Positions 11,007-59,762 of a DNA stretch of 59,762 nt are shown here, one piece after another. Each line of letters starts with the position of its first letter. Position 1 is the first letter of the stretch. The stretch comes from a virus (Duplodnaviria; Caudoviricetes). The position numbers were made by a program, and so were the translations under genes. The stretch covers positions 1-59,762 of the IMG/VR virus record IMGVR_UViG_3300037549_000080; one strand, 5' to 3'. The notes below the pieces were generated by a model. It was given only the letters and a program-made list of their open reading frames with translations. It was not told where the DNA came from and searched no databases.

Positions 11007-11864
11007 TCAACTGAGGAACCATTCCAGCATCGGCCGCTGGTCATTAACAAACTGCCGGCCAGCTTCCACAAGGTAGGCAAGGCTAGATGGGTCGGCGCCA
11101 TCCAGCTTAACCGGGGCGGCGAAGGTCGGCTGTATCACCCGGTAGTAATCACCGAGAAATTGTTTCATCTGATATTGAACTTCTTCCTGACCGGTGGCGA
11201 ATTGCAGCCCGATGGTCAGCGCCAGGTCTTGCACCCACTGCGGCCAGCCCGGAGCCGGAACATCGTCCTGCCCGCACCCGATGGTCAACAGCTTCACCTG
11301 CTCGCCCGGCCACAGCTTGCACGCATCAGCGTACGCGCACACCGATGGGTCGTTGGCAATGTTGCCGCCGTCCCATAGGTACTTGTTCCCGAGCTTGAAC
11401 GCCGGGAAGTAACGCTGCGCCGCGGACGTCGCCCGGCCGACCTGCCATAGCGGCGTGGCTCCGTCTAACAGCAGGTTCCCGGTGTCGTACGACTTGAACA
11501 TGAACGGCACTTGGTCGGTGCGGTTGAGCGCCGGAACCAGCAGCTTGGTCTTGCAATCCTTGAGCGCCTTGCAATCAAACCGCCGCTGAAGCACAGCCTC
11601 AATCGGGCCCGCCGGGTACAGCGGCCAGTGACGGTACCATGCCGGGTTAAATATGGCCGGGCCGTCCTGCGTGAAAAAACTGGTGTACGGACCCGGAAGC
11701 GCAGCAGACACCAGCCCGGCGAGAATCCCGCCGATGCTGGTGCCTGCAATTAAATCCACATGGTCAGCCAGCTTGCCGGCCGCCATGATCTGCAGCTCGT
11801 CCAAAGCAGCGGCCGCCGGCAATCCTTTCATGCCGCCGCCCGCAATGCAGAGAACGCGCATCAT
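11007..11864 (-). CDS. Patatin-like phospholipase
   Basis: GGGMKG, GTSIG (catalytic Ser), RATSAA..YF, DGG (catalytic Asp); start reassigned to MMRVL. Confidence 0.9.
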   Translation of the reverse strand: MMRVLCIAGGGMKGLPAAAALDELQIMAAGKLADHVDLIAGTSIGGILAGLVSAALPGPYTSFFTQDGPAIFNPAWYRHWPLYPAGPIEAVLQRRFDCKALKDCKTKLLVPALNRTDQVPFMFKSYDTGNLLLDGATPLWQVGRATSAAQRYFPAFKLGNKYLWDGGNIANDPSVCAYADACKLWPGEQVKLLTIGCGQDDVPAPGWPQWVQDLALTIGLQFATGQEEVQYQMKQFLGDYYRVIQPTFAAPVKLDGADPSSLAYLVEAGRQFVNDQRPMLEWFLS

Positions 11865-11868
11865 AACC

Positions 11869-12432
11869 TTAGAAGCGGGCGCCGACGCCAACCAACACAA
11901 TGCCGCCGGAGTTGAAAGAGCCATGTTCTTCAAACGGCAGACCCCAGCCGACGTAACTGAACGTGTTCGGTGTCATAACCTTCACGGCTTTGAGGTCACC
12001 TTCCACAATCCAACTTGAATGTTGCACGTTGCCGACATAATTATTGAAGTCAGCGCCGGCAAGGATGTTGGCTTCAATCTTGAAGTCGCCTTTTTGAATA
12101 AGGTTGTAGCCGCCGCCCAACATAATCTTGCCGAACGCGGAACCGACACCTTCAAACTCACCAACGAACTGGGCATTCCAGTTGCCGAAGGTTTTTTCAA
12201 CGGTCAGCCGGTCAGCCGAGGATTTGCCGGTGATTTGCGCCAAGCCGGTTTCGACGGAAAGCGTCGAGTTGGTCCATGAGTAGGTTGGATCATAGTTGAT
12301 GGACGTGCTCCAAGAATACGCCTGCCCAAAGAAATTTACGAGCGGGTTGGCGTTGGTAGCTGTCAGGGTCTGCGCCTGCGCCGTCAGCGACAGCGTGGCG
12401 ATGGTTAGGATTGCTGCGATGTATTTTTTCAT
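11869..12432 (-). CDS. Signal-peptide protein, probable small outer-membrane beta-barrel
   Basis: MKKYIAAILTIATLSLTAQA signal; alternating amphipathic strands; terminal VGVGARF. Confidence 0.65.
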   Translation of the reverse strand: MKKYIAAILTIATLSLTAQAQTLTATNANPLVNFFGQAYSWSTSINYDPTYSWTNSTLSVETGLAQITGKSSADRLTVEKTFGNWNAQFVGEFEGVGSAFGKIMLGGGYNLIQKGDFKIEANILAGADFNNYVGNVQHSSWIVEGDLKAVKVMTPNTFSYVGWGLPFEEHGSFNSGGIVLVGVGARF

Positions 12433-41289: not shown

Positions 41290-41955
41290 CTATTTGCCTT
41301 TCTTTTTTGCTGGTTTCTTTTGCTTCACCGGGACGGGCTCGGCTACCTCTGGTTCCGGCGGCTTGGCCACCGGCACGTAGAAGCTTCTCCGGGCCACTTC
41401 GTCACGGTCAACTTGGAACACGTTACCGCAGCCCGGACAGCTCATGTCCACGAGGTTGCGGGTGGCGCTGCCTATCTGGGCGACGCCGGCCTGCATCTGC
41501 TGTCCCAGTGCGGCAATCTTTTCGTTGGTCGGCACCGGGGCCGGCGTGCTGACCTTGTTCAGAAATTCGGCAATGTTGAAGTCAGGCATCATGGCCTGCA
41601 CTTCGGCGGGCGTCTGCCACTCACGGATCTCCGCCATGAGCTTGTCCGTGTCCCATGTGGCCGCCTCGCTGCTCTTGTTGTCAATGACTCGGTACTCCTT
41701 GGCCTTGGCTTCGTCCATCAGGCTGATGACGCAGGGCAATGTGGCCAGCCCCAGCTGCTTCGCGGCCATGTATCGCGTGTGCCCGGCGATGATGGTCTTC
41801 TCCGTGTCGAGGATGATGGGCTGCGTGAAGCCAAACCTTTCGATCGACGCCTTCACCACCTGCACGGCAGCCTCGTTGTTCCGCGGATTGCGCCAGTACG
41901 GTATTATCTCCGTGATAGGCACGTTTATGATTTCAAGCTGCGGCTTTTCGCTCAT
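41290..41955 (-). CDS. ParB/Srx N-terminal domain protein with C-terminal Zn ribbon
   Basis: PYWRNPRNN...SIERFGFTQPII...IIAGHTRYMAAKQLG...DNKSSE; CPGCG. Confidence 0.9.
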   Translation of the reverse strand: MSEKPQLEIINVPITEIIPYWRNPRNNEAAVQVVKASIERFGFTQPIILDTEKTIIAGHTRYMAAKQLGLATLPCVISLMDEAKAKEYRVIDNKSSEAATWDTDKLMAEIREWQTPAEVQAMMPDFNIAEFLNKVSTPAPVPTNEKIAALGQQMQAGVAQIGSATRNLVDMSCPGCGNVFQVDRDEVARRSFYVPVAKPPEPEVAEPVPVKQKKPAKKKGK

Positions 41956-42604
41956 GTGATTTTTGTATTTTGATTTGGTTTTCGGTGACCCAGGACGGGC
42001 TAAACTTTGCATCCTTGAACAGCTTGGCGAAGCCGGTGATGTGCTTCAGCCGCAGCAACTCGTCCGGTTCCAGCCCCAGCTCATTGCATATCTGGTTGTC
42101 GCCCCAGCCCAGCTTGAGCAGTTCGAACACCATGCTGCCCATGCCGGCCACGCTGTGCTTACCTCGGGCCCGGTTGTGCCGGATGGTGCTGGCCATGCGG
42201 TCGCCAATCGGCTTGTCAATGACCACGATGGGCAGCAGCCCGTTGCGGGCGGCTTTGATGTCCGGGAAATTGCGCATCGTCGTGTACCGATGGAAACCAT
42301 CAACGATGATGTACTTGCCCAGCTTCTCGTCCCAGATGGTCACCACCGGCTGCGTGTAGCCGTCATGGCTGATGCTGGTGTGCAGCAGGCGCATTTCATT
42401 TGAGGCCACGCTGTTCGGATTGTAATTGTTGCTTTGCACCATTTCGATGGGCACCCAGCGCACGTGGTCAATGGGGTCTTTCAGATCGGATATGTCATGC
42501 AGGTACTCCCTCAGCATGCCTATAAACATCTGCCGGCGGGCCGGGGTGTCCAAGCCGGCCATCAGCTTGGTGATTATATTTTTTACTTCGGCGGGCAGTT
42601 TCAT
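41933..42604 (-). CDS. ibrB: IbrB/YbdM-like ParB-domain protein
   Basis: NNYNPNSVA..EM.LL..SI..DGYTQPVV, VDGFHR, RMASTIRHNRARGKH. Confidence 0.9.
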   Translation of the reverse strand: MKLPAEVKNIITKLMAGLDTPARRQMFIGMLREYLHDISDLKDPIDHVRWVPIEMVQSNNYNPNSVASNEMRLLHTSISHDGYTQPVVTIWDEKLGKYIIVDGFHRYTTMRNFPDIKAARNGLLPIVVIDKPIGDRMASTIRHNRARGKHSVAGMGSMVFELLKLGWGDNQICNELGLEPDELLRLKHITGFAKLFKDAKFSPSWVTENQIKIQKSHERKAAA

Positions 42605-43725
42605 TTTCGTAACTCTACCTTTCCTTGCTTGAGCTGTAAATGCAAAGCGTTCTCGATTGAGCAGCACCAGTTGGCCAGCTTCACATGCTCATAGTCGTTG
42701 GTCAGGATGCTGTTGATGTGCAGCCGGAACAGTTTGTCACCCGCCTTGTCCAGCCAGATTTCCTCCATCCATTTGAATTTCTTGGCGAAGCCGTCGCGCC
42801 ATTCCGGGTTGGCGATTAAGTTTTCCAGCAGGTAATCCCGGTACTCCCGCCAGTCTTTGAACATGTGGGGCAGGTCATGGATGAAATAATCGTCTTTGTT
42901 CATCTTGCCGGCCATGTCTATGCCTTGGATGCGCTGCGTCAGGCGCTGATACGTTTCCGGCTCTATCTCCTGCAAATGGAACAGGCTCTTGACGGCGGTT
43001 TCATGATGCACGTTGCTGACCCGCATCTTGCTCGGCGGCACGCCGTACCGATAATAATGGTCATAGAGTTCGTTGTACGGCCAGCCGTTGTCATTGATGG
43101 CCTTCCACACGTCGCCCAGCGCCCAGTCATAAATCGGGTACATGGTGAAATGCAGCTGCGCCTTTTTGTTGAAGCATTTCCCCCAGGTCGCGCCCTTGTA
43201 CGTTTCATGCATCGTCAGCCCTTGGAACCGGCTCGGGCTTTCCTCGCACCGCACGCCGGCCAGATAACAGGTCTTCAGCCCGGCAAAGTCTTTGGTCAGG
43301 ATGGCTTCGAACAGTTCAAAGAACCGGTTCGTGCCGTAGGTGTTCTCCTTGATGGCGTTCGGCTCTTTGGGCCGCAGCCAGACATCTTCCTTGCCCGGCT
43401 CCCAGCAGTACAGCTGCGTGTCAATCTGGCTGGTCGCGTTGACCATCTGAATCGGTATCTGGTACCACAGCGGTTCAACCTCCGGGTTTTCCATGACGAG
43501 GCGCACGTAGTTCACCGTGGCCTGCCACTCGGCCTCTTGGTCCACGAACATCACCTTCAGCGGCAGCCGCCCTTTCTCACGGGCCACCAGCAGCGCAAGG
43601 TTCAAGATGATGGTGCTGTCTTTGCCGCCGCTGAAGCCGACCAGCACATTCGGGAATTCATCGAAGAGCCAGCGCATCCGTTTGAGCGCGGCCTCCCAGA
43701 CGTTATCTTTGATGTAGAACTTCAC
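42601..43725 (-). CDS. ibrA: IbrA/YbdN-like PAPS-reductase-fold (PP-loop) protein
   Basis: NVWEAALKRMRWLF, FSGGKDS, DQEAEW, GVRCEES..R, YPIYDW...DVW, MRVS; GTGA start. Confidence 0.9.
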   Translation of the reverse strand: MKFYIKDNVWEAALKRMRWLFDEFPNVLVGFSGGKDSTIILNLALLVAREKGRLPLKVMFVDQEAEWQATVNYVRLVMENPEVEPLWYQIPIQMVNATSQIDTQLYCWEPGKEDVWLRPKEPNAIKENTYGTNRFFELFEAILTKDFAGLKTCYLAGVRCEESPSRFQGLTMHETYKGATWGKCFNKKAQLHFTMYPIYDWALGDVWKAINDNGWPYNELYDHYYRYGVPPSKMRVSNVHHETAVKSLFHLQEIEPETYQRLTQRIQGIDMAGKMNKDDYFIHDLPHMFKDWREYRDYLLENLIANPEWRDGFAKKFKWMEEIWLDKAGDKLFRLHINSILTNDYEHVKLANWCCSIENALHLQLKQGKVELRK

Positions 43726-44888
43726 AGCGCTGGTTTTATATCGCCTTTGAACGTGAAGCCCAGCGCATTCAGCCGGTTGAAGAATTCCATTTCTGGGATG
43801 ATGCCTTCCGGGCAATACACACCCCGGTCAGTGATGAAATTTTCCAGCAGCATTTCTGTGATGATGCAGGCGGGAAAGGCGGTGTCCACGTTGCACCCGT
43901 ATTCTTCCCAGCCGGGCAGCGGCGGCACGATGCATTCCATGTGGCCCACCACCGGCAGCTTGTTGACCTCGCCCCGCACCGTCACCCACAGGTTTTCAGA
44001 TTCCTTGTACCCGGCCGGCGTTGGTATGCGCTTGCTCATGGCCGTCAGGAAGTCGCACGGCTGCACCTTGGTTGGCCCGGCATCCGTCACCACGATCACG
44101 GGCTGGTCGTGCTGGAAACCCATTTTAATCAGAGAGTCAATCACGGCCTTGCTGTGCGCCGGGAACCCGGCGAAGAATTTCACGTTCTTCAAACCCTTGT
44201 CTTTGAAATAGTGGTGGAATGAATAAACCTCCGAGTGCGGCACCAGATACACGACCTGCTCACCCAGCAGTTCAAATTCCCGGCATTTAGATTCGCTCAG
44301 CGGCGGCACCGTCACCAGCTCATTGTTCTCCATCACCAGCGCCGGCAGGCTCAGCTCCAACGTGACCACGTACAGGAAGAACGGCGGCACAAAGTCTTTC
44401 ATGTTGCTGTCCCATGCGAAACCAGCCTCAGCGCTCTCCACGGAATGCATCTGCCCGGCCATGTGCTTCATCATCACGCTGCCGATGCCCGGCACGCTGC
44501 CGCAACCCATGATAGCTGTCAGCCCGGCCGCCTTCACTTCCTGATGCCGGATTAGCCGGCGGGCGGTGCCCGGTATGTCCGAACCCAGGTCCACGTAGTG
44601 AGTGTTGAAATCAATGCACGCCTGAAGCACTCCGTCATTGTAAAAGTCGCTGGCACAGTTCAGCACGATGCGCGGCTGGAACCGTTCAAGGATGTCCCGC
44701 AGCATGTACGTGTGGCGGTGGTCGCAGAACTGGAACGGTATCTTGCCGCCGGCATGGTCTATTTCCTTCTGCACGTTGTCCCGGTAGATGTCGGCCACCA
44801 CGATGCTGTGGCCGCGCTGTGACAGGAACCGGGTGGCGATGATGCCTTGCTGCCCGTCTGCACCGAGGATGAGGATGTCAGTTTTCAT
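43722..44888 (-). CDS. Saccharopine dehydrogenase-family NAD(P)H oxidoreductase
   Basis: Rossmann ILGADGQQG, HYVDLG, GCGSVPGI, HSEV, GVYCPE. Confidence 0.85.
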   Translation of the reverse strand: MKTDILILGADGQQGIIATRFLSQRGHSIVVADIYRDNVQKEIDHAGGKIPFQFCDHRHTYMLRDILERFQPRIVLNCASDFYNDGVLQACIDFNTHYVDLGSDIPGTARRLIRHQEVKAAGLTAIMGCGSVPGIGSVMMKHMAGQMHSVESAEAGFAWDSNMKDFVPPFFLYVVTLELSLPALVMENNELVTVPPLSESKCREFELLGEQVVYLVPHSEVYSFHHYFKDKGLKNVKFFAGFPAHSKAVIDSLIKMGFQHDQPVIVVTDAGPTKVQPCDFLTAMSKRIPTPAGYKESENLWVTVRGEVNKLPVVGHMECIVPPLPGWEEYGCNVDTAFPACIITEMLLENFITDRGVYCPEGIIPEMEFFNRLNALGFTFKGDIKPAL

Positions 44889-45433
44889 TGGTTGGATTTA
44901 TCAATCACTTTTTTTAGTTCCGCGTACCGGGCACCGTTCATTTCTCCGCCTATGAACCTTGCCCCGCACTTGATGATTATTTCTGCTGTCACGCCCAGCC
45001 CGGCAAACGGGTCAAACACCAGCCCCGGCTTCAGGGCCGCAATGGCCGCCCGGATGCAGCCTTCTTCATCCAGCCCCAGCGTGGGCGTCAGATAATCGGT
45101 GTTGAAGGACAGCACCACCATCGGCTTGCCGTTGCATTGCAACGCCAGCGCGTGACCGGTGTACCGGTGGCCGCAATACTTTCCTATCTCCACCACCTTG
45201 TCCCAGCCACGGGCCGAGAACTCCACCAGCATCGGCTTGTCGCGGTGCGCTGAAGCAAATAGCTGGTTGAGCGCGTCCTTCATTGTTTCTTTTGACGCCC
45301 GGCCGGTTTTTACCATGGCCGACTTTTGGAAAAGCTTCATGATGCCTTCGTTCCAAGGCGGGTCGGTGTACATCAGGTCATAGGCCGGGAACGATGGCCA
45401 GTCTCCCACGGAACGGTTATAGGCTTGGTTCAT
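44885..45433 (-). CDS. Minimal beta-class amino-methyltransferase (N6A/N4C type)
   Basis: YTDPPW precedes VFDPFAGLG; GGEMN; only 182 aa. Confidence 0.8.
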   Translation of the reverse strand: MNQAYNRSVGDWPSFPAYDLMYTDPPWNEGIMKLFQKSAMVKTGRASKETMKDALNQLFASAHRDKPMLVEFSARGWDKVVEIGKYCGHRYTGHALALQCNGKPMVVLSFNTDYLTPTLGLDEEGCIRAAIAALKPGLVFDPFAGLGVTAEIIIKCGARFIGGEMNGARYAELKKVIDKSNQ

Positions 45434-46075: not shown

Positions 46076-46136
46076 GGCCGCACCGGGAACAACTCCGGTG
46101 CGGCCGCGTGACGGTAACAAGACCAACACCGTCACG
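46076..46136 (-). terminator. Two adjacent hairpins after the ligase gene
   Basis: GGCCGCACCGG/CCGGTGCGGCC and CGTGACGGT/ACCGTCACG. Confidence 0.6.
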
Positions 46137-47217
46137 AAACTTCTGCCTTGTACTTCAGCTGCCGGGTGATGCATTCCATGGCGTCAACGTCATCGCGTTT
46201 GAACGTCTCGCCCGTCATGCACGGGCTGGGTTGATACAGCACGCCTGTCGCCTTCAGGGCGTACAGGTACTTGATTTCCACGACGTCGCCAACCTTCAGC
46301 GTTTCAATCAGGCCACGCTTTAGCACCGTCACGTTGCCGCAGGACACCCACGCATTGCCGTTGAATAGCTCGCACTCAATGCTCAACGCACCGCCGGGCC
46401 GCAGCGTGCGCACCCGCGCTGAGAGGCTTTTCCAGAACTTGCACTTGAACTGCGTATCGGTGTAGCCCACTTGGAACGCGGCATCACGGCGCTTGAACAC
46501 GATACCCTCTTTGCCGCCGTGCTTCAGGTCGTTAAACATCTTGCGCTTTTCTTCCTTGGTGAACGCCGTGGGCACCACCCGCACCGGCGTGTCGGTCCAC
46601 GGGAACAGGTTGATTGCTTTGGCCAGCCGGTGACTGTACGGTTCAGAGGTTATGTCCTGCCCGTCCAGCCCGGCCCAGCTCGTCAGGTTGTGGACATGGT
46701 AAACGTCACCAATGTGTTCCGCGCTGGCAATGAAGTCCCGTTTGGCCATGATGGCTTGGTCATGCACCGGGCCGGGCGTGGGAACTATCTGCCCCTTTTT
46801 GTTCGCGCTGGTCACCACCATATTTTTCAGCCGCAGCGTCTTGTTCCGGCCGTCCAGCTTTTCCTGTGCGCAATAGGCGTCATCGTTGATGTACTGCTCC
46901 GCATCTTCCTCGCTGATGTCCGTCAGCAGCTGGGGCAACATTTCGGCGTCCACTTCCTTGGCTGTTTCACCCACCGGGGCGGCGGCCGGTTGCTCGTCCA
47001 TCTTGTAACCCTTAGCCACCTTTTCTTTCACTAGGCGGTTGAAGATGTCCTGTGCCTGTGCCCGCGTGACTTCCAGCGGCGTCTTGGTGCCGCAGGTCAG
47101 GGCGCTGCCCCGGCGGCCGTATTGGAAGTTCACCACGTAGCCGTGACCTTTCGGCTCAAGCTGCACGTGGTACTCTTTGTCACTGGTGCCCGACTGGTAT
47201 CTCAATGTCATTTTCAT
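46132..47217 (-). CDS. WGR-domain ATP-dependent ligase
   Basis: SDKEY...YGRRG (WGR); QEKLDG motif I; EGIVFKR; KCKF; C-terminal OB fold. Confidence 0.88.
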   Translation of the reverse strand: MKMTLRYQSGTSDKEYHVQLEPKGHGYVVNFQYGRRGSALTCGTKTPLEVTRAQAQDIFNRLVKEKVAKGYKMDEQPAAAPVGETAKEVDAEMLPQLLTDISEEDAEQYINDDAYCAQEKLDGRNKTLRLKNMVVTSANKKGQIVPTPGPVHDQAIMAKRDFIASAEHIGDVYHVHNLTSWAGLDGQDITSEPYSHRLAKAINLFPWTDTPVRVVPTAFTKEEKRKMFNDLKHGGKEGIVFKRRDAAFQVGYTDTQFKCKFWKSLSARVRTLRPGGALSIECELFNGNAWVSCGNVTVLKRGLIETLKVGDVVEIKYLYALKATGVLYQPSPCMTGETFKRDDVDAMECITRQLKYKAEVS

Positions 47218-52719: not shown

Positions 52720-54459
52720 TTACTGGCCGCTGCCCAGCAGCAGCCGGGCGTCACCGGTGCCCAGCTGCACGTTGGTCTTGAAGTATTCGGCGGCTTTCGG
52801 GTCATCCAGTTCCTCCGCCGCTTCCTTGCCCGTGCGCAGCCAGCCCCGGAGCCGGCCGTGTTCCACGTTCAACGCCAGCATGAAATCCTTGTTCAACCGC
52901 AGATGCACGTTGCCATTCAGGAAGGCCCGGCAGTCGAACAGCAGCTTGCCGGCACCCAGCGGCGTCATATAGAAGTTCTCCGTCTTGCCCGGTGTCCAGC
53001 CGGTGCGGCCGGAATAGATCAGTCGCGGTTCGCTGGTGTTGTTCTGGAAACCAAGGTTGCGAGCCAGTGTCCCTAGGTCTTGCAGGAAGCTGGCCGATGA
53101 CTCATTCAGCTCTGAATCCCGCCACGTTGACCGCATGCCGCCGCCCAGCCGGTGCGACACAATCCGGTAATCCAGCGCGTAGTGACTGTTCGGGTCGGCT
53201 TCGTCCCGGCCGCGCCACCGGTTTTCCACCCAGACCCGGTGATTGCTCTTGTACAGCGTCACGTTGGCTTTCTCCACCATCTGCTCGTAGGTTTCCAGCA
53301 GCTGCGAATCAATGTACCGGTTCGCGTTCTTGATTACCCACAGCACCACTTCAAGGATGTTGTCCACGGTGAAGTCCACCTGCACATGCTTTTGAAGCGT
53401 TTCCAGCAGCTGCTTCCGGCTCTTGTTGGTCAGGCGCTCGGTGATGGCGTTCAGGTGGTCGAACAGCTCTTTCCAGTAATCGTTGCGCAGCCCGGCCAGA
53501 CGCAGCTTGAGGCATTGCATGATTTTGTCCGGGAAGATTTCAAACTCACGCAGGAGATCCACATCCAGGTCGGACACCAGCCGGTAGTTCTTATTCACGT
53601 GTTCCATTTCGGCGTTGTACAGCTGCACCAGCGCCTCGGGATAGTTCGGGCCCACCACCAGCGAATGGAACGGCCGCACCCGGCCGCCCTTGGTCTTTTC
53701 CTCACTGAAACCGTGGTCGGGTTTCTCTGGCTCGGCGGCCTTGAACCGGTTGATTAGGTCGGCAAACTGCTCCTTGAAGAATCGGCCAAACGCATCGTCT
53801 TTGTCTCGGTCGTACCGGTCAACCCGGTACCGGATGCTGAGCAAGTCCACCTTGGCGCGGGCCTTGCGGTCTTCCGCATCTTCAAAGTCAAAGCTGCCCA
53901 CCTTGACTGCTTCAACCTCGCGGAATTGCAGCGCGTCAAGGATTTCTATGCTGCCTTCCCAGCGCCGGGGCAGCAGCAGATACACCACCCGGCAGGATGC
54001 CTCCCGGATAATCTTTTCGGCCCATGGGACAAACTGGCTGTAAGGCGGGTTGCAATAGATGATGTCCACCGGCTTCGAGAGCAGGCTTTGTTCTTCAAAC
54101 TTGGTGCCCACCACCAAGACTTCATTCGGCAGTTCGGCGCAAAGGATATGCGACTTTTCAATGGCATGCAAATTGTTCACTCCGCATTTCTCTTTGACGG
54201 CCATTAACACCTTGCCGTTGCCGGCCCCGATGTCCAAGATGCTGCTCTTGCCTTCGCGGTCATCGTCCCGGTGGCCATGCTCGTTCACGTACACCAGCCC
54301 GATGTCCCGGCACAGCGCCATGATGATTTCATTGGTGGTCGGGTACCACTCATGGTCTTCACCCGCCTGCTTCAGTTCCTCGACCAGCTTGCGCGGCGTG
54401 GTGAAGCTGCCGGATGCGGCCGCCGGTTCAAAGGTCAGGCCGGGCTGGGTGGCGGTCAT
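52720..54459 (-). CDS. Class I SAM-dependent DNA adenine methyltransferase (DUF4942-type)
   Basis: EWYPT, ILDIGAGNG, CNPPYS, C-terminal AFLNGNVHLRL. Confidence 0.85.
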   Translation of the reverse strand: MTATQPGLTFEPAAASGSFTTPRKLVEELKQAGEDHEWYPTTNEIIMALCRDIGLVYVNEHGHRDDDREGKSSILDIGAGNGKVLMAVKEKCGVNNLHAIEKSHILCAELPNEVLVVGTKFEEQSLLSKPVDIIYCNPPYSQFVPWAEKIIREASCRVVYLLLPRRWEGSIEILDALQFREVEAVKVGSFDFEDAEDRKARAKVDLLSIRYRVDRYDRDKDDAFGRFFKEQFADLINRFKAAEPEKPDHGFSEEKTKGGRVRPFHSLVVGPNYPEALVQLYNAEMEHVNKNYRLVSDLDVDLLREFEIFPDKIMQCLKLRLAGLRNDYWKELFDHLNAITERLTNKSRKQLLETLQKHVQVDFTVDNILEVVLWVIKNANRYIDSQLLETYEQMVEKANVTLYKSNHRVWVENRWRGRDEADPNSHYALDYRIVSHRLGGGMRSTWRDSELNESSASFLQDLGTLARNLGFQNNTSEPRLIYSGRTGWTPGKTENFYMTPLGAGKLLFDCRAFLNGNVHLRLNKDFMLALNVEHGRLRGWLRTGKEAAEELDDPKAAEYFKTNVQLGTGDARLLLGSGQ

Positions 54460-58298: not shown

Positions 58299-59093
58299 TT
58301 AGTGCAGATTCAGCCATACAAAGGTGGTGTCGCTTTTTGTCAGGCACCGCACAGCGCGGCCTTTGATTGCGTTATTTAAGGCATGTAAACAATGTGGTGG
58401 CTCTTTCGGGTGAATATAATCGTGCAGGCCGATTGCGATGAGGCCGATGCGGTCAATCCATTGGTGGGAATTTTCAAGGACTTGCCGCTCTGCACCTTCA
58501 ATGTCCATTTTCAAAATATCAATGGTTTCAAGTCTGTATTCTTTAAGCAGGCTGCCGATTGAAACTGTTTTAGTATCTCCGGTTTTTTGTGGCTCAAAGG
58601 CGAATCCAGCATGACAGCCATCCTCTTTTATTCCCATCCTACCCCCTGAATACCACCACAGCGCAGCCTTGACCGGTTTTATGTTTTGGTAGGGTGCGCT
58701 ATTCCTCAAAAGCATTTCATAATTTGACTGCTCCGGTTCAATGGCGATTATCAGCGCATCTGGATACCGGTTCGCGTAATAAACCGATGTGCAGCCGATG
58801 TTAGCTCCGGCGTCAACGATGACCTTCGGCTCGCTGGCCAGATCGCACTTGTATTCCTCGTCAAGCAGGATTTCCTGAACCACCCACATATCGGTCGTTC
58901 CGGCGCGAACACGGACTGGATGTTTAATTCCGCGAACCTTGATGAGGCTGATTTGGCTCTGGGTGATGTTTAGCGCGTGCTTTACTTTCTTAGCCACTAT
59001 GCCTATCGGGATGTGGAGTAAGAATCTAGCAATGCCGCTTAGGCCGATTTGGCGGTAGTAGTGCGGTAATCTGCGTAGTGTTTTGGTAGTCAT
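58299..59093 (-). CDS. FkbM-family methyltransferase
   Basis: IVDAGANIG, IAIEP, IDILKMDIEGAE; visibly more AT-rich than its neighbours. Confidence 0.9.
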   Translation of the reverse strand: MTTKTLRRLPHYYRQIGLSGIARFLLHIPIGIVAKKVKHALNITQSQISLIKVRGIKHPVRVRAGTTDMWVVQEILLDEEYKCDLASEPKVIVDAGANIGCTSVYYANRYPDALIIAIEPEQSNYEMLLRNSAPYQNIKPVKAALWWYSGGRMGIKEDGCHAGFAFEPQKTGDTKTVSIGSLLKEYRLETIDILKMDIEGAERQVLENSHQWIDRIGLIAIGLHDYIHPKEPPHCLHALNNAIKGRAVRCLTKSDTTFVWLNLH

Positions 59094-59124
59094 ATTATTT
59101 ATTTATTTTCCGTTCCGCAGTTGT

Positions 59125-59154
59125 TCGGCGGTGGCTCAGCTTTTTTCGTTAGGC
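59125..59154 (+). mobile_element. Truncated attC site (right arm and R' core GTTAGGC)
   Basis: 28-nt identity to 59427-59454. Confidence 0.75.
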
Positions 59155-59450
59155 CACTTACAGACGTTCATTTGATGGTTTGATTTTGCCGTTATGTTTA
59201 TCGCGCTCAAAACGACGGATTGCTTTTCGGATTTGTTCCGGCGAGTCATGGCGTCCGGTCAGGATGTCACGAGTCATGGCCGTGGTTCGGTCGTGAATCA
59301 TTGCCTCGGTTTTAGATGAGAGTTTTTTCATTTTATGTTTGTAAATTGTCGCCAGTGGCCTAACCAGTCGCCGGAGCCAACCGCCGTTGGCGCGGTCAGT
59401 TCCGCTGTCGCGGTTCACGTCACGAGTCGGCGGTGGCTCAGCTTTTTTCG
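59149..59450 (+). mobile_element. Integron-type gene cassette (302 bp) with an antisense ORF
   Basis: Begins G/TTAGGCCACT; its attC begins AGTGGCCTAAC (perfect 11-nt complement). Confidence 0.75.
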
Positions 59451-59487
59451 TTAGCAGGCTCTGCGTTGGTGTCGGTGTGGTGTTCAT
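59158..59487 (-). CDS. Hypothetical protein reading through the antisense attC (internal start MKKLSS at about 59331)
   Basis: ATGA-coupled to the DUF6745-like stop; the attC translates as PPPTRDVNRDSGTDRANGGWLRRLVRP. Confidence 0.55.
   Translation of the reverse strand: MNTTPTPTQSLLTKKAEPPPTRDVNRDSGTDRANGGWLRRLVRPLATIYKHKMKKLSSKTEAMIHDRTTAMTRDILTGRHDSPEQIRKAIRRFERDKHNGKIKPSNERL
59358..59456 (+). mobile_element. attC site (99 bp)
   Basis: GCCTAAC-N5-GCCGGAGCCAACCGCCG...CGGCGGTGGCTCAGC-N-GTTAGCA imperfect palindrome with unpaired bases. Confidence 0.8.
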
Positions 59488-59635
59488 GTCAGTATCTCCG
59501 CATTCTCATGCCAGTTTGAGTTGCGCCAATTCAACGCCTCGGTAATGGTCTTGATCTCTGGTGCGACTCCCTCAAGGTGAAAGCAGCCGACTGATGGGTT
59601 GACCATTTTCAGGTAGCGGGCGTCCTTCACCTGCT
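59484..59635 (-). CDS. DUF6745-like protein, 3' part (joins 1-1294)
   Basis: RYLKMVNPSVGCFHLEGV.P...T..EALNWR C-terminus, in frame across the junction. Confidence 0.85.
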
Positions 59636-59762
59636 CGTCTAAGTTGATGCTTAATAATTCGTAGCCGTCGCGCTTCTCCATCACCTTATGCGGCATCTGC
59701 GCCAACATCCGGTCAATGCCAACCTTGCGGATTAACTCGCGGCGACGGTCAGCATTGGTTTC
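59636..59762. repeat. Terminal direct repeat, copy 2
   Basis: Identical to 1-127. Confidence 0.95.

Follow-up and report, generated by a model that had tools for sequence, protein, structure and literature searches.

Integrons and gene cassettes in bacteria and phages

Integrons are best known as gene-capture devices of bacteria, and phage cases have been reported recently and in few genomes. Inverted cassettes in chromosomal integrons are mostly toxin-antitoxin cassettes with their own promoters, and in the 'inverted integrase' integrons, for example that of Treponema denticola, intI is flipped and the ORFs are left in sense to attC. The sedentary chromosomal integrons, such as the superintegron of Vibrio cholerae, consist of arrays of near-identical attC sites beside intI (PMC13108822, PMC11023631). 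Clusters of attC sites and integrons in phages have also been published: among 10,705 NCBI phage genomes 17 CALINs were identified, and IntI1 was reported to recombine five of six tested phage-borne attCs (Qi et al. 2023, PMC9892861). A CALIN has no intI nearby and, by the default of IntegronFinder 2.0, comprises at least two attC sites (PMC9024848).

The DNA analysed here (the window, 59,762 bp) is the whole of IMG/VR viral record G000, a phage genome that is complete, with direct terminal repeats of 127 bp. In this integrase-less phage, a genuine attC site and a decayed half-copy of such a site very probably bracket one small gene cassette. The locus resembles the CALINs of Qi et al. (PMC9892861), in which attC sites and cassettes occur in phages, virulent ones included, with no integrase nearby; DNA methyltransferase cargo and the proposed use of host IntI in trans are also in common. 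Unlike those CALINs, the present loci are from uncultivated viral records, their attC family is that of Verrucomicrobiae integrons, their cassette genes lie on the bottom strand, and the window itself holds one intact site and a half-site. Its related records G001 (nine sites) and G003 (five sites) are CALINs, whereas the window offers no intI, one intact attC and a 28-nt half-site that scores 17.6 bits.

Superintegron-type arrays are seen in the likely hosts of this phage (see below), whereas the copy in the window lies in a phage as a single site with no intI and with an inverted ORF. Like the inverted chromosomal cassettes, the window cassette has its ORF antisense to attC, an arrangement that gives no expression from an integron cassette promoter. 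IntI-catalysed cassette insertion outside att sites has been described and is a possible route by which a first cassette could enter non-integron DNA such as that of a phage (bioRxiv 10.1101/2022.09.11.507474); unlike a plain insertion at a genomic GTT, however, the left junction in the window is an attC half-site. The literature searched did not describe a link to the chromosomal integrons of Verrucomicrobiae, a recurrence in 17 viral records, systematic coding on the bottom strand or the compact intI-attI arrangement. In the text of PMC9892861, the words antisense, opposite and Verrucomicrobia are absent; its supplementary tables could bear on ORF orientation.

Genome features of the phage

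Nearly all long ORFs of G000 lie on the - strand. Pfam analysis of 59 ORFs of at least 100 aa identified a large terminase, a Mu-type portal, a Mu F-like protein, DnaB, a replication O-like protein, SSB, a UvrD-like helicase and several DNA-modification enzymes; the recombination and repair proteins encoded are RecU-like, SSB and UvrD-like. None of these 59 ORFs matched an integrase family. A six-frame search with PF00589 gave no tyrosine recombinase in G000, with matches in 14/14 control genomes, in agreement with an earlier note on this DNA, which had seen no such gene. The complete record G001 was likewise without a PF00589 match. G000 thus has no complete integron (intI and attI beside an array), and any recombination at its attC would need IntI in trans. 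Almost the whole + strand of G000 has a negative GC skew, and a switch point is absent; this weakly suggests replication along the direction of transcription, a signal confounded by transcription itself.

A cluster of DNA-modification-like genes was also identified (41290-45433 and 52720-54459). It comprises two ParB_N proteins, a PAPS reductase with DUF3440, a saccharopine-dehydrogenase-like protein, an N6_N4 methylase fragment and a 579-aa DUF4942 methyltransferase; PAPS-reductase and methylase genes like those of this cluster are found as cassette cargo in related phage arrays. Unusual phage cargo is present at 11007-11933 and 46132-47217, namely a patatin-like phospholipase and a WGR-domain protein with a weak match to ATP-dependent ligase.

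The intact attC site

An intact attC of 99 nt, with the + strand as its top strand, was identified at 59358..59456 using covariance model R1, which was built from 123 Verrucomicrobiae chromosomal-integron attCs only (host sites, no phage sites). The R1 match spans 59358-59455 and scored 99.0 bits (E 1.8e-25, + strand), and the one other R1 match in the 59.8-kb window is the truncated copy. R1 is strongly strand-specific: for one site of G001 the two strands scored 115.5 and 17.8 bits. The full 99-bp attC-like palindrome seen in the earlier note therefore passes a covariance-model check, made with this host-built model rather than with that of IntegronFinder. Read on the + strand, the site consists of R'' (GCCTAAC, 59358-59364), a 9-nt spacer, L'' (GAGCCA-A-CCGCCG, 59374-59386, with one extra A at 59380), a loop, L' (CGGCGG-TGGCTC, 59428-59439), a T-rich spacer (AGCTTTTTTC, 59440-59449) and R' (GTTAGCA, 59450-59456), with the crossover between G59450 and T59451. 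This is the layout R''-L''...L'-R' with the extra base on the 5' arm. The inverse core sites RYYYAAC and GTTRRRY are represented by GCCTAAC (59358-59364) and GTTAGCA (59450-59456); the bases after G/TT in the latter belong to neighbouring DNA, and the cassette's own TTAGGCC at 59149 restores GTTAGGC. Compared with the best host sites, 95/99 bases are identical, and two of the four differences lie beyond the crossover point.

Pairing of L'' with L' is imperfect, with unpaired positions on the 5' arm only in the model structure. Across 71 phage-borne sites, in an alignment that was fitted to the covariance model, pairing is seen in 93.9% of cells, and both sides vary in 18 of 21 pairs, including 12/12 pairs of the L-box helix. 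None of 500 shuffles paired as well, and slid controls paired at 25-35%. Folding energy is unremarkable: the DNA minimum free energy of the site is -22.8 kcal/mol on the + strand and -23.3 kcal/mol on the - strand (z about -1.2 to -1.3), with an equally good fold in 19 to 24 of 200 shuffles. Support for the structure consequently comes from covariation and the model score, not from folding energy; of the proposed check by folding the bottom strand, the energy part gave no support. No Rfam family matched 58800-59762. The sequence at 59358-59456 is a genuine integron attC, as recognised by a family-specific model rather than a general attC model.

The T-rich tract after L' was seen in 128/220 host sites and 20/71 phage sites. 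Since it is on the top strand only, attC would be terminator-like only when read in the sense direction. A terminator scanner gave only a small local hairpin and T-run at 59424-59449 on the + strand, with counts equal to those of shuffled sequence; a terminator role of attC is thus no more than a tentative idea.

GTTAGCAGGCT follows the last attC both in the window (59450-59461) and in the unrelated phage record G003 (L014:1700-1711). This stretch was also identified in a Verrucomicrobiia MAG (L035:~95-106, - strand), where one base differs afterwards; the further flanks of these loci are unlike. A terminal or first-cassette sequence shared by them is a possibility.

The truncated copy and the cassette

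A truncated attC, of which the L'-spacer-R' arm is present, lies at 59125..59152 on the + strand, with a weaker remnant of the variable loop to its left (59109-59121). Its 28 nt are an exact direct repeat of 59427-59454, as the earlier note had read; two matches at up to three mismatches were found, against 0.00 expected from 100 shuffles. R1 scored this copy at 17.6 bits (E 0.049, within 59024-59154). Having no R''/L'' arm, the left site cannot fold, so the cassette is not excisable now by attC × attC recombination; the intact right site is predicted to be one that could still capture cassettes.

Between the crossovers G59148/T59149 and G59450/T59451 lies a gene cassette of 302 bp (59149..59450, + strand). 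The inverted 11-mers GTTAGGCCACT (59148) and AGTGGCCTAAC (59354) are 100% complementary, and the cassette start TTAGGCCAC complements its own R'' region GTGGCCTAA, as expected of an integrated cassette. The exact complementarity of the cassette ends, claimed from the letters, therefore stands; the special meaning given to it does not, as these are the extended R''/R' boxes of the attC family, GTTAGGCCAC being the commonest 3' end in host arrays. The cassette ORF, P0001, is predicted to encode 57 aa on the - strand, which is the attC bottom strand (59161..59331, stop codon 59158-59160). A codon model scored this antisense ORF at +2.0 and the best sense ORF at -3.4, in line with the claim that the ORF is antisense to attC and matches phage transcription. 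In a canonical cassette the ORF is on the top strand with attC at its 3' end; here the ORF is on the bottom strand and attC is upstream. No Pfam or PHROG match was obtained for P0001, nor any homologue within the length range searched (31-100 aa), and it is regarded as a putative gene without a homologue, predicted from sequence.

An FkbM-type methyltransferase gene (58299..59093, - strand; PF05050, E 2.6e-11; phrog_8156, methyltransferase) starts 32 nt from the truncated attC and may once have been a cassette, or may belong to the phage backbone. On the other side, the 3' end of a DUF6745-domain gene (59484..59762, continuing at 2-1294 across the record ends, - strand) has a stop codon that overlaps the ATG at 59487. 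From this ATGA overlap an extended frame of 109 aa (59158..59487, - strand) crosses attC in frame with the 57-aa ORF, so that an ORF does read through the whole antisense attC without a stop. The same frame through the reversed attC is, however, open in 126/220 host attCs against 18/71 phage attCs, which makes it a property of the 99-nt repeat and not a design common to phage arrays. The translational wiring of the cassette into the operon, as the earlier note had proposed it, is thus not supported; judged from the frames, the read-through is no evidence of translational coupling.

Integrons of the likely hosts

A 23-mer of the 5' arm occurred at no fewer than 168 loci in genome_contigs (at least 168), and among the 80 rows listed, 66 were labelled Verrucomicrobia or a subgroup of it (Verrucomicrobiae, subdivision 3, Limisphaerales, Pedosphaera, Spartobacteria). 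Host arrays can be dense, with up to 18 matches to the 23-mer in 9.5 kb among the matches listed. Integron integrases (TIGR02249) were identified in 5/5 tested host genomes, at ten places scoring 307-423 bits (cut-off 265), and in 0/14 control genomes above 265 bits. Tandem arrays beside an integron integrase are accordingly found for this attC family in hosts, though not inside the window. In a host array that was read, the ORFs lie on the strand of the 5'-arm motif and end at the TAA inside GCC-TAA-C; in 9/9 cases in which intI and an array could be assigned to a single contig, the attC top strand is directed away from intI. For these two reasons the 5'-arm-motif strand was taken as the conventional top strand. 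Among 220 distinct host attCs, 156 have a length of 99 nt, and the median pairwise identity is 93/99. The likeness of the window site to them and the integrases in all tested host genomes agree with the supposition that the hosts are Verrucomicrobiota with IntI; on this sequence evidence, Verrucomicrobiae are the likely hosts of phage G000.

Several further observations were made in these searches. Beside intI in one host contig (L025:1005-1735, G004:C3), two near-identical tandem units of ~360 bp directly follow an attI-like GTTAGGC, each ending in CGTTAGGC with an atypical long attC-like end. Verrucomicrobia-type attC arrays were also identified in MAGs labelled 'uncultured Bifidobacteriaceae' from binchicken co-assemblies (L018, L030, L032, L066, L079, L080, L086, L090 and L091); a wrong label or faulty binning of the contigs may account for this. 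Contigs of four peat metagenome runs, X1, X2, X3 and X5 from three studies, that match the attC parts of the window (59120-59185 and 59318-59515) add up to a depth of 10^4 to 10^5, which makes the attC family very abundant in peat communities.

Related arrays in other viral records

The 23-mer was present in 15 viral contigs, which with G000 and G002 gives 17 viral records; the search of genomes and viromes proposed in the earlier note has thus placed the attC family in both. The phage arrays reach nine sites and have uniform attC polarity within an array. A 26-mer of the repeat was identified in three other viral contigs, among them that of G003, in which five sites are spaced at intervals of 260-420 bp and the L boxes change in a compensating way. 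Between the two complete records G000 and G001, structural genes share about 68-70% nucleotide identity and the attCs 88-93%; the orientation of attC relative to the backbone is opposite in the two.

No cassette was common to the viral records at the nucleotide level. Comparison of the phage loci with each other and with 434 kb of host array loci (tblastn and blastn) showed no clearly shared cassette, returning only translated-attC matches, a few short inter-phage fragments and weak matches at 27-29%. For the genes flanking the window cassette, viral_contigs gave no confirmed relative of the FkbM protein and one partial match (40% identity) to the DUF6745 protein; metagenome_contigs gave 11 distant loci for the latter, none with an attC match in 47.7 kb. 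An exact search of metagenome_contigs with 30 nt from inside the cassette had 0 matches. Neither viral_contigs nor metagenome_contigs thus yielded a close relative in which cassette presence or absence at this locus could be compared.

In G001, the main attC array wraps around the record ends, and a second attC pair lies ~5 kb from it (L013:12663-13120, 52.6-53.1 kb). In two related phage records (L014:1705-2349 and L202:490-1133), the first homologous backbone block starts 644 and 643 nt, respectively, from the last attC. The cassettes differ between these two at a nearly equal distance, which suggests a conserved array boundary with variable content.

IntI-like genes of phages

A tyrosine recombinase was identified in 3/14 viral records searched: G317 (L231:8405-9422), G318 (L232:5796-6814) and G311 (L233:4681-5664). 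Almost the full length of TIGR02249 is matched by the three proteins, at 224-264 bits and just short of the cut-off of 265; Xer models give at most 126 bits. The proteins are 33-35% identical to a host IntI. The stretch LPGxLAxKYxNAxxExxWQxxFPS, which we take to be the IntI-specific insertion, is found in all three. The contigs carry phage genes, in the case of G318 a large terminase, DnaB and an O-like initiator. Each IntI-like gene adjoins its array in canonical geometry, and these three records have, or nearly have, a complete integron. Their start codons are 2-30 nt from an attI-like GTTAGGC core, and the genes run in the same direction as the cassette ORFs. This distance leaves no room for the usual divergent promoters, and intI would be co-transcribed with the cassettes. 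The common direction of intI and cassette ORFs is shared with the Treponema denticola type; in that type intI is the inverted element, whereas in the phages intI retains the canonical polarity to attI and attC and the ORFs are inverted.

Orientation of cassette genes relative to attC

In the phage arrays, cassette genes are mirrored, that is antisense to attC, whereas host cassette genes are in sense. Pfam-supported ORFs in phage cassettes were 7/54 antisense against 0/56 sense, and in host cassettes 15/72 sense against 0/62 antisense, the host sample being 72 of the 112 cassettes of at least 300 nt. The antisense matches in phage cassettes are to N6_N4 methylase, PAPS reductase, radical SAM, R2K ATP-grasp, YopX, sigma-70 region 4/AP2 and, weakly, Zn_Tnp_IS91; no toxin-antitoxin family was matched in them by Pfam. 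By ORF length, the 175 host cassettes divide into 117 sense, 9 antisense and 49 ambiguous, and the 54 phage cassettes into 11 sense, 25 antisense and 18 ambiguous; the inverted orientation is thus a minority in host arrays and the rule in phage arrays. The codon model, which was trained on phage ORFs, assigned 3 phage cassettes to sense, 35 to antisense and 16 as unclear; on the noisier host side the numbers were 69, 38 and 68, so that by this measure the contrast is less clean than by ORF length or Pfam. The opposite orientation of their genes shows that the phage arrays did not arise simply by theft of host cassettes.

Origin and use of the phage-borne site

An attC of the host family in known orientation, a phage with no recombinase, likely hosts with IntI, and cassette genes mirrored in phage arrays are the observations that any mechanism has to accommodate. 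The cassette would have entered by IntI recombination in trans, the enzyme being that of the host or, in a co-infection, that of a phage. The substrate of this enzyme would be the folded bottom strand, which corresponds to the phage coding (-) strand; as the cassette gene is on this bottom strand, phage transcription reads it in the sense direction. The reason preferred here for the mirrored arrangement is that a phage-borne intI has to be transcribed together with the phage operon, and that this would fix the polarity of the platform, under which expression and retention would be limited to cassettes with bottom-strand genes. A bottom strand on the lagging-strand template favours recombination (PMC13108822, PMC11023631), and phage arrays would be in this recombination-prone configuration if replication follows transcription. 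With the recombining strand on the coding strand, and this probably being the lagging-strand template, the arrays may recombine more than host arrays.

Taken further, and with confidence a little below even, this leads to the tentative proposal that phages of Verrucomicrobiae run a mirrored integron of their own, with the attC family of the host, bottom-strand genes, in some cases a co-transcribed IntI, and a separate cassette pool. The phage pool (methyltransferases, PAPS-reductase-like, radical-SAM and YopX proteins and many orphans) would be kept apart from the host pool by expression polarity, and integrase-less members such as G000 would rely on the IntI of the host or of a co-infecting phage.

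Another account, which is judged rather unlikely but is the strongest competitor, makes the locus an inactive relic, its attC and half-attC being left from one old capture and serving now as an intergenic hairpin or as nothing. The loss of the R''/L'' arm on the left, and with it of excision, fits a relic, as do the single intact site of a phage without integrase and the failure of the viral_contigs and metagenome_contigs searches to find polymorphism at the locus. The intact site itself, however, is not decayed, since it is 95/99 identical to host sites and scores like sites of host arrays. Moreover, phages that are ~68% identical in structural genes carry attCs that are 88-93% identical and flank different cassettes, which points to recent and repeated acquisition. 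This same combination of near-identical repeats in unrelated phages with differing genes between them could arise if the ~100-bp repeats served as homologous-recombination linkers between co-infecting phages, with no IntI involved, and the RecU-like, SSB and UvrD-like proteins of G000 would suit such exchange. We consider this improbable: it leaves the R and L boxes, the extra bases confined to one arm and the covariation unexplained, as well as the uniform attC polarity within arrays, and three phage records keep an IntI-like gene beside an attI-like core.

The two remaining accounts are both very improbable. In one, the whole circular phage would be a giant cassette, integrating into a host integron through its attC with host IntI and so achieving lysogeny with no integrase of its own. 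An intact attC of the host's own family in an integrase-less genome would agree with this, and with all genes on the bottom strand, the integrated phage would lie antisense to the host cassette promoter. A large-terminase homologue was identified in 6/301 genomes of the host order, and the three best contigs (MAG contigs, 46-49% identity) carry no attC, which argues against such integration, though as a small test on incomplete contigs. In the other account, the cassette and the 5' part of attC would come from another array and would have been threaded in at assembly through the 28-nt repeat. The depth reached by the attC family in peat runs (10^4 to 10^5, summed) makes this conceivable, and Logan contigs stop at 59152 and restart at 59128-59132. 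No piece among those listed from the contigs of four public runs bridges the left flank into the cassette, the breaks falling inside attC repeats. Depths of cassette pieces and flanks also differ (13.5 against 21-23 in X1; 7.2 against 4-5.9 in X2), although contig depths cannot rank the parts. The joints listed in these contigs come from other arrays of the same repeat family, and none of them is an empty-site or circular-cassette joint. Against an artefact, the right-flank contig of X2 (record 16) starts with the two bases that distinguish the full attC and not with those of the left flank, so that it does not hold an empty-site join. The 28-nt repeat is also far shorter than a read, and sixteen other viral records have the same kind of embedded array carrying phage-type genes.

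Whatever its history, the site in G000 ties a phage-borne attC base for base to the integrons of poorly studied hosts of peat and freshwater. If the proposal of a mirrored phage integron is true, phages would themselves exploit integron recombination and would have a separate cassette pool, which could be a source of DNA-modification and counter-defence genes.
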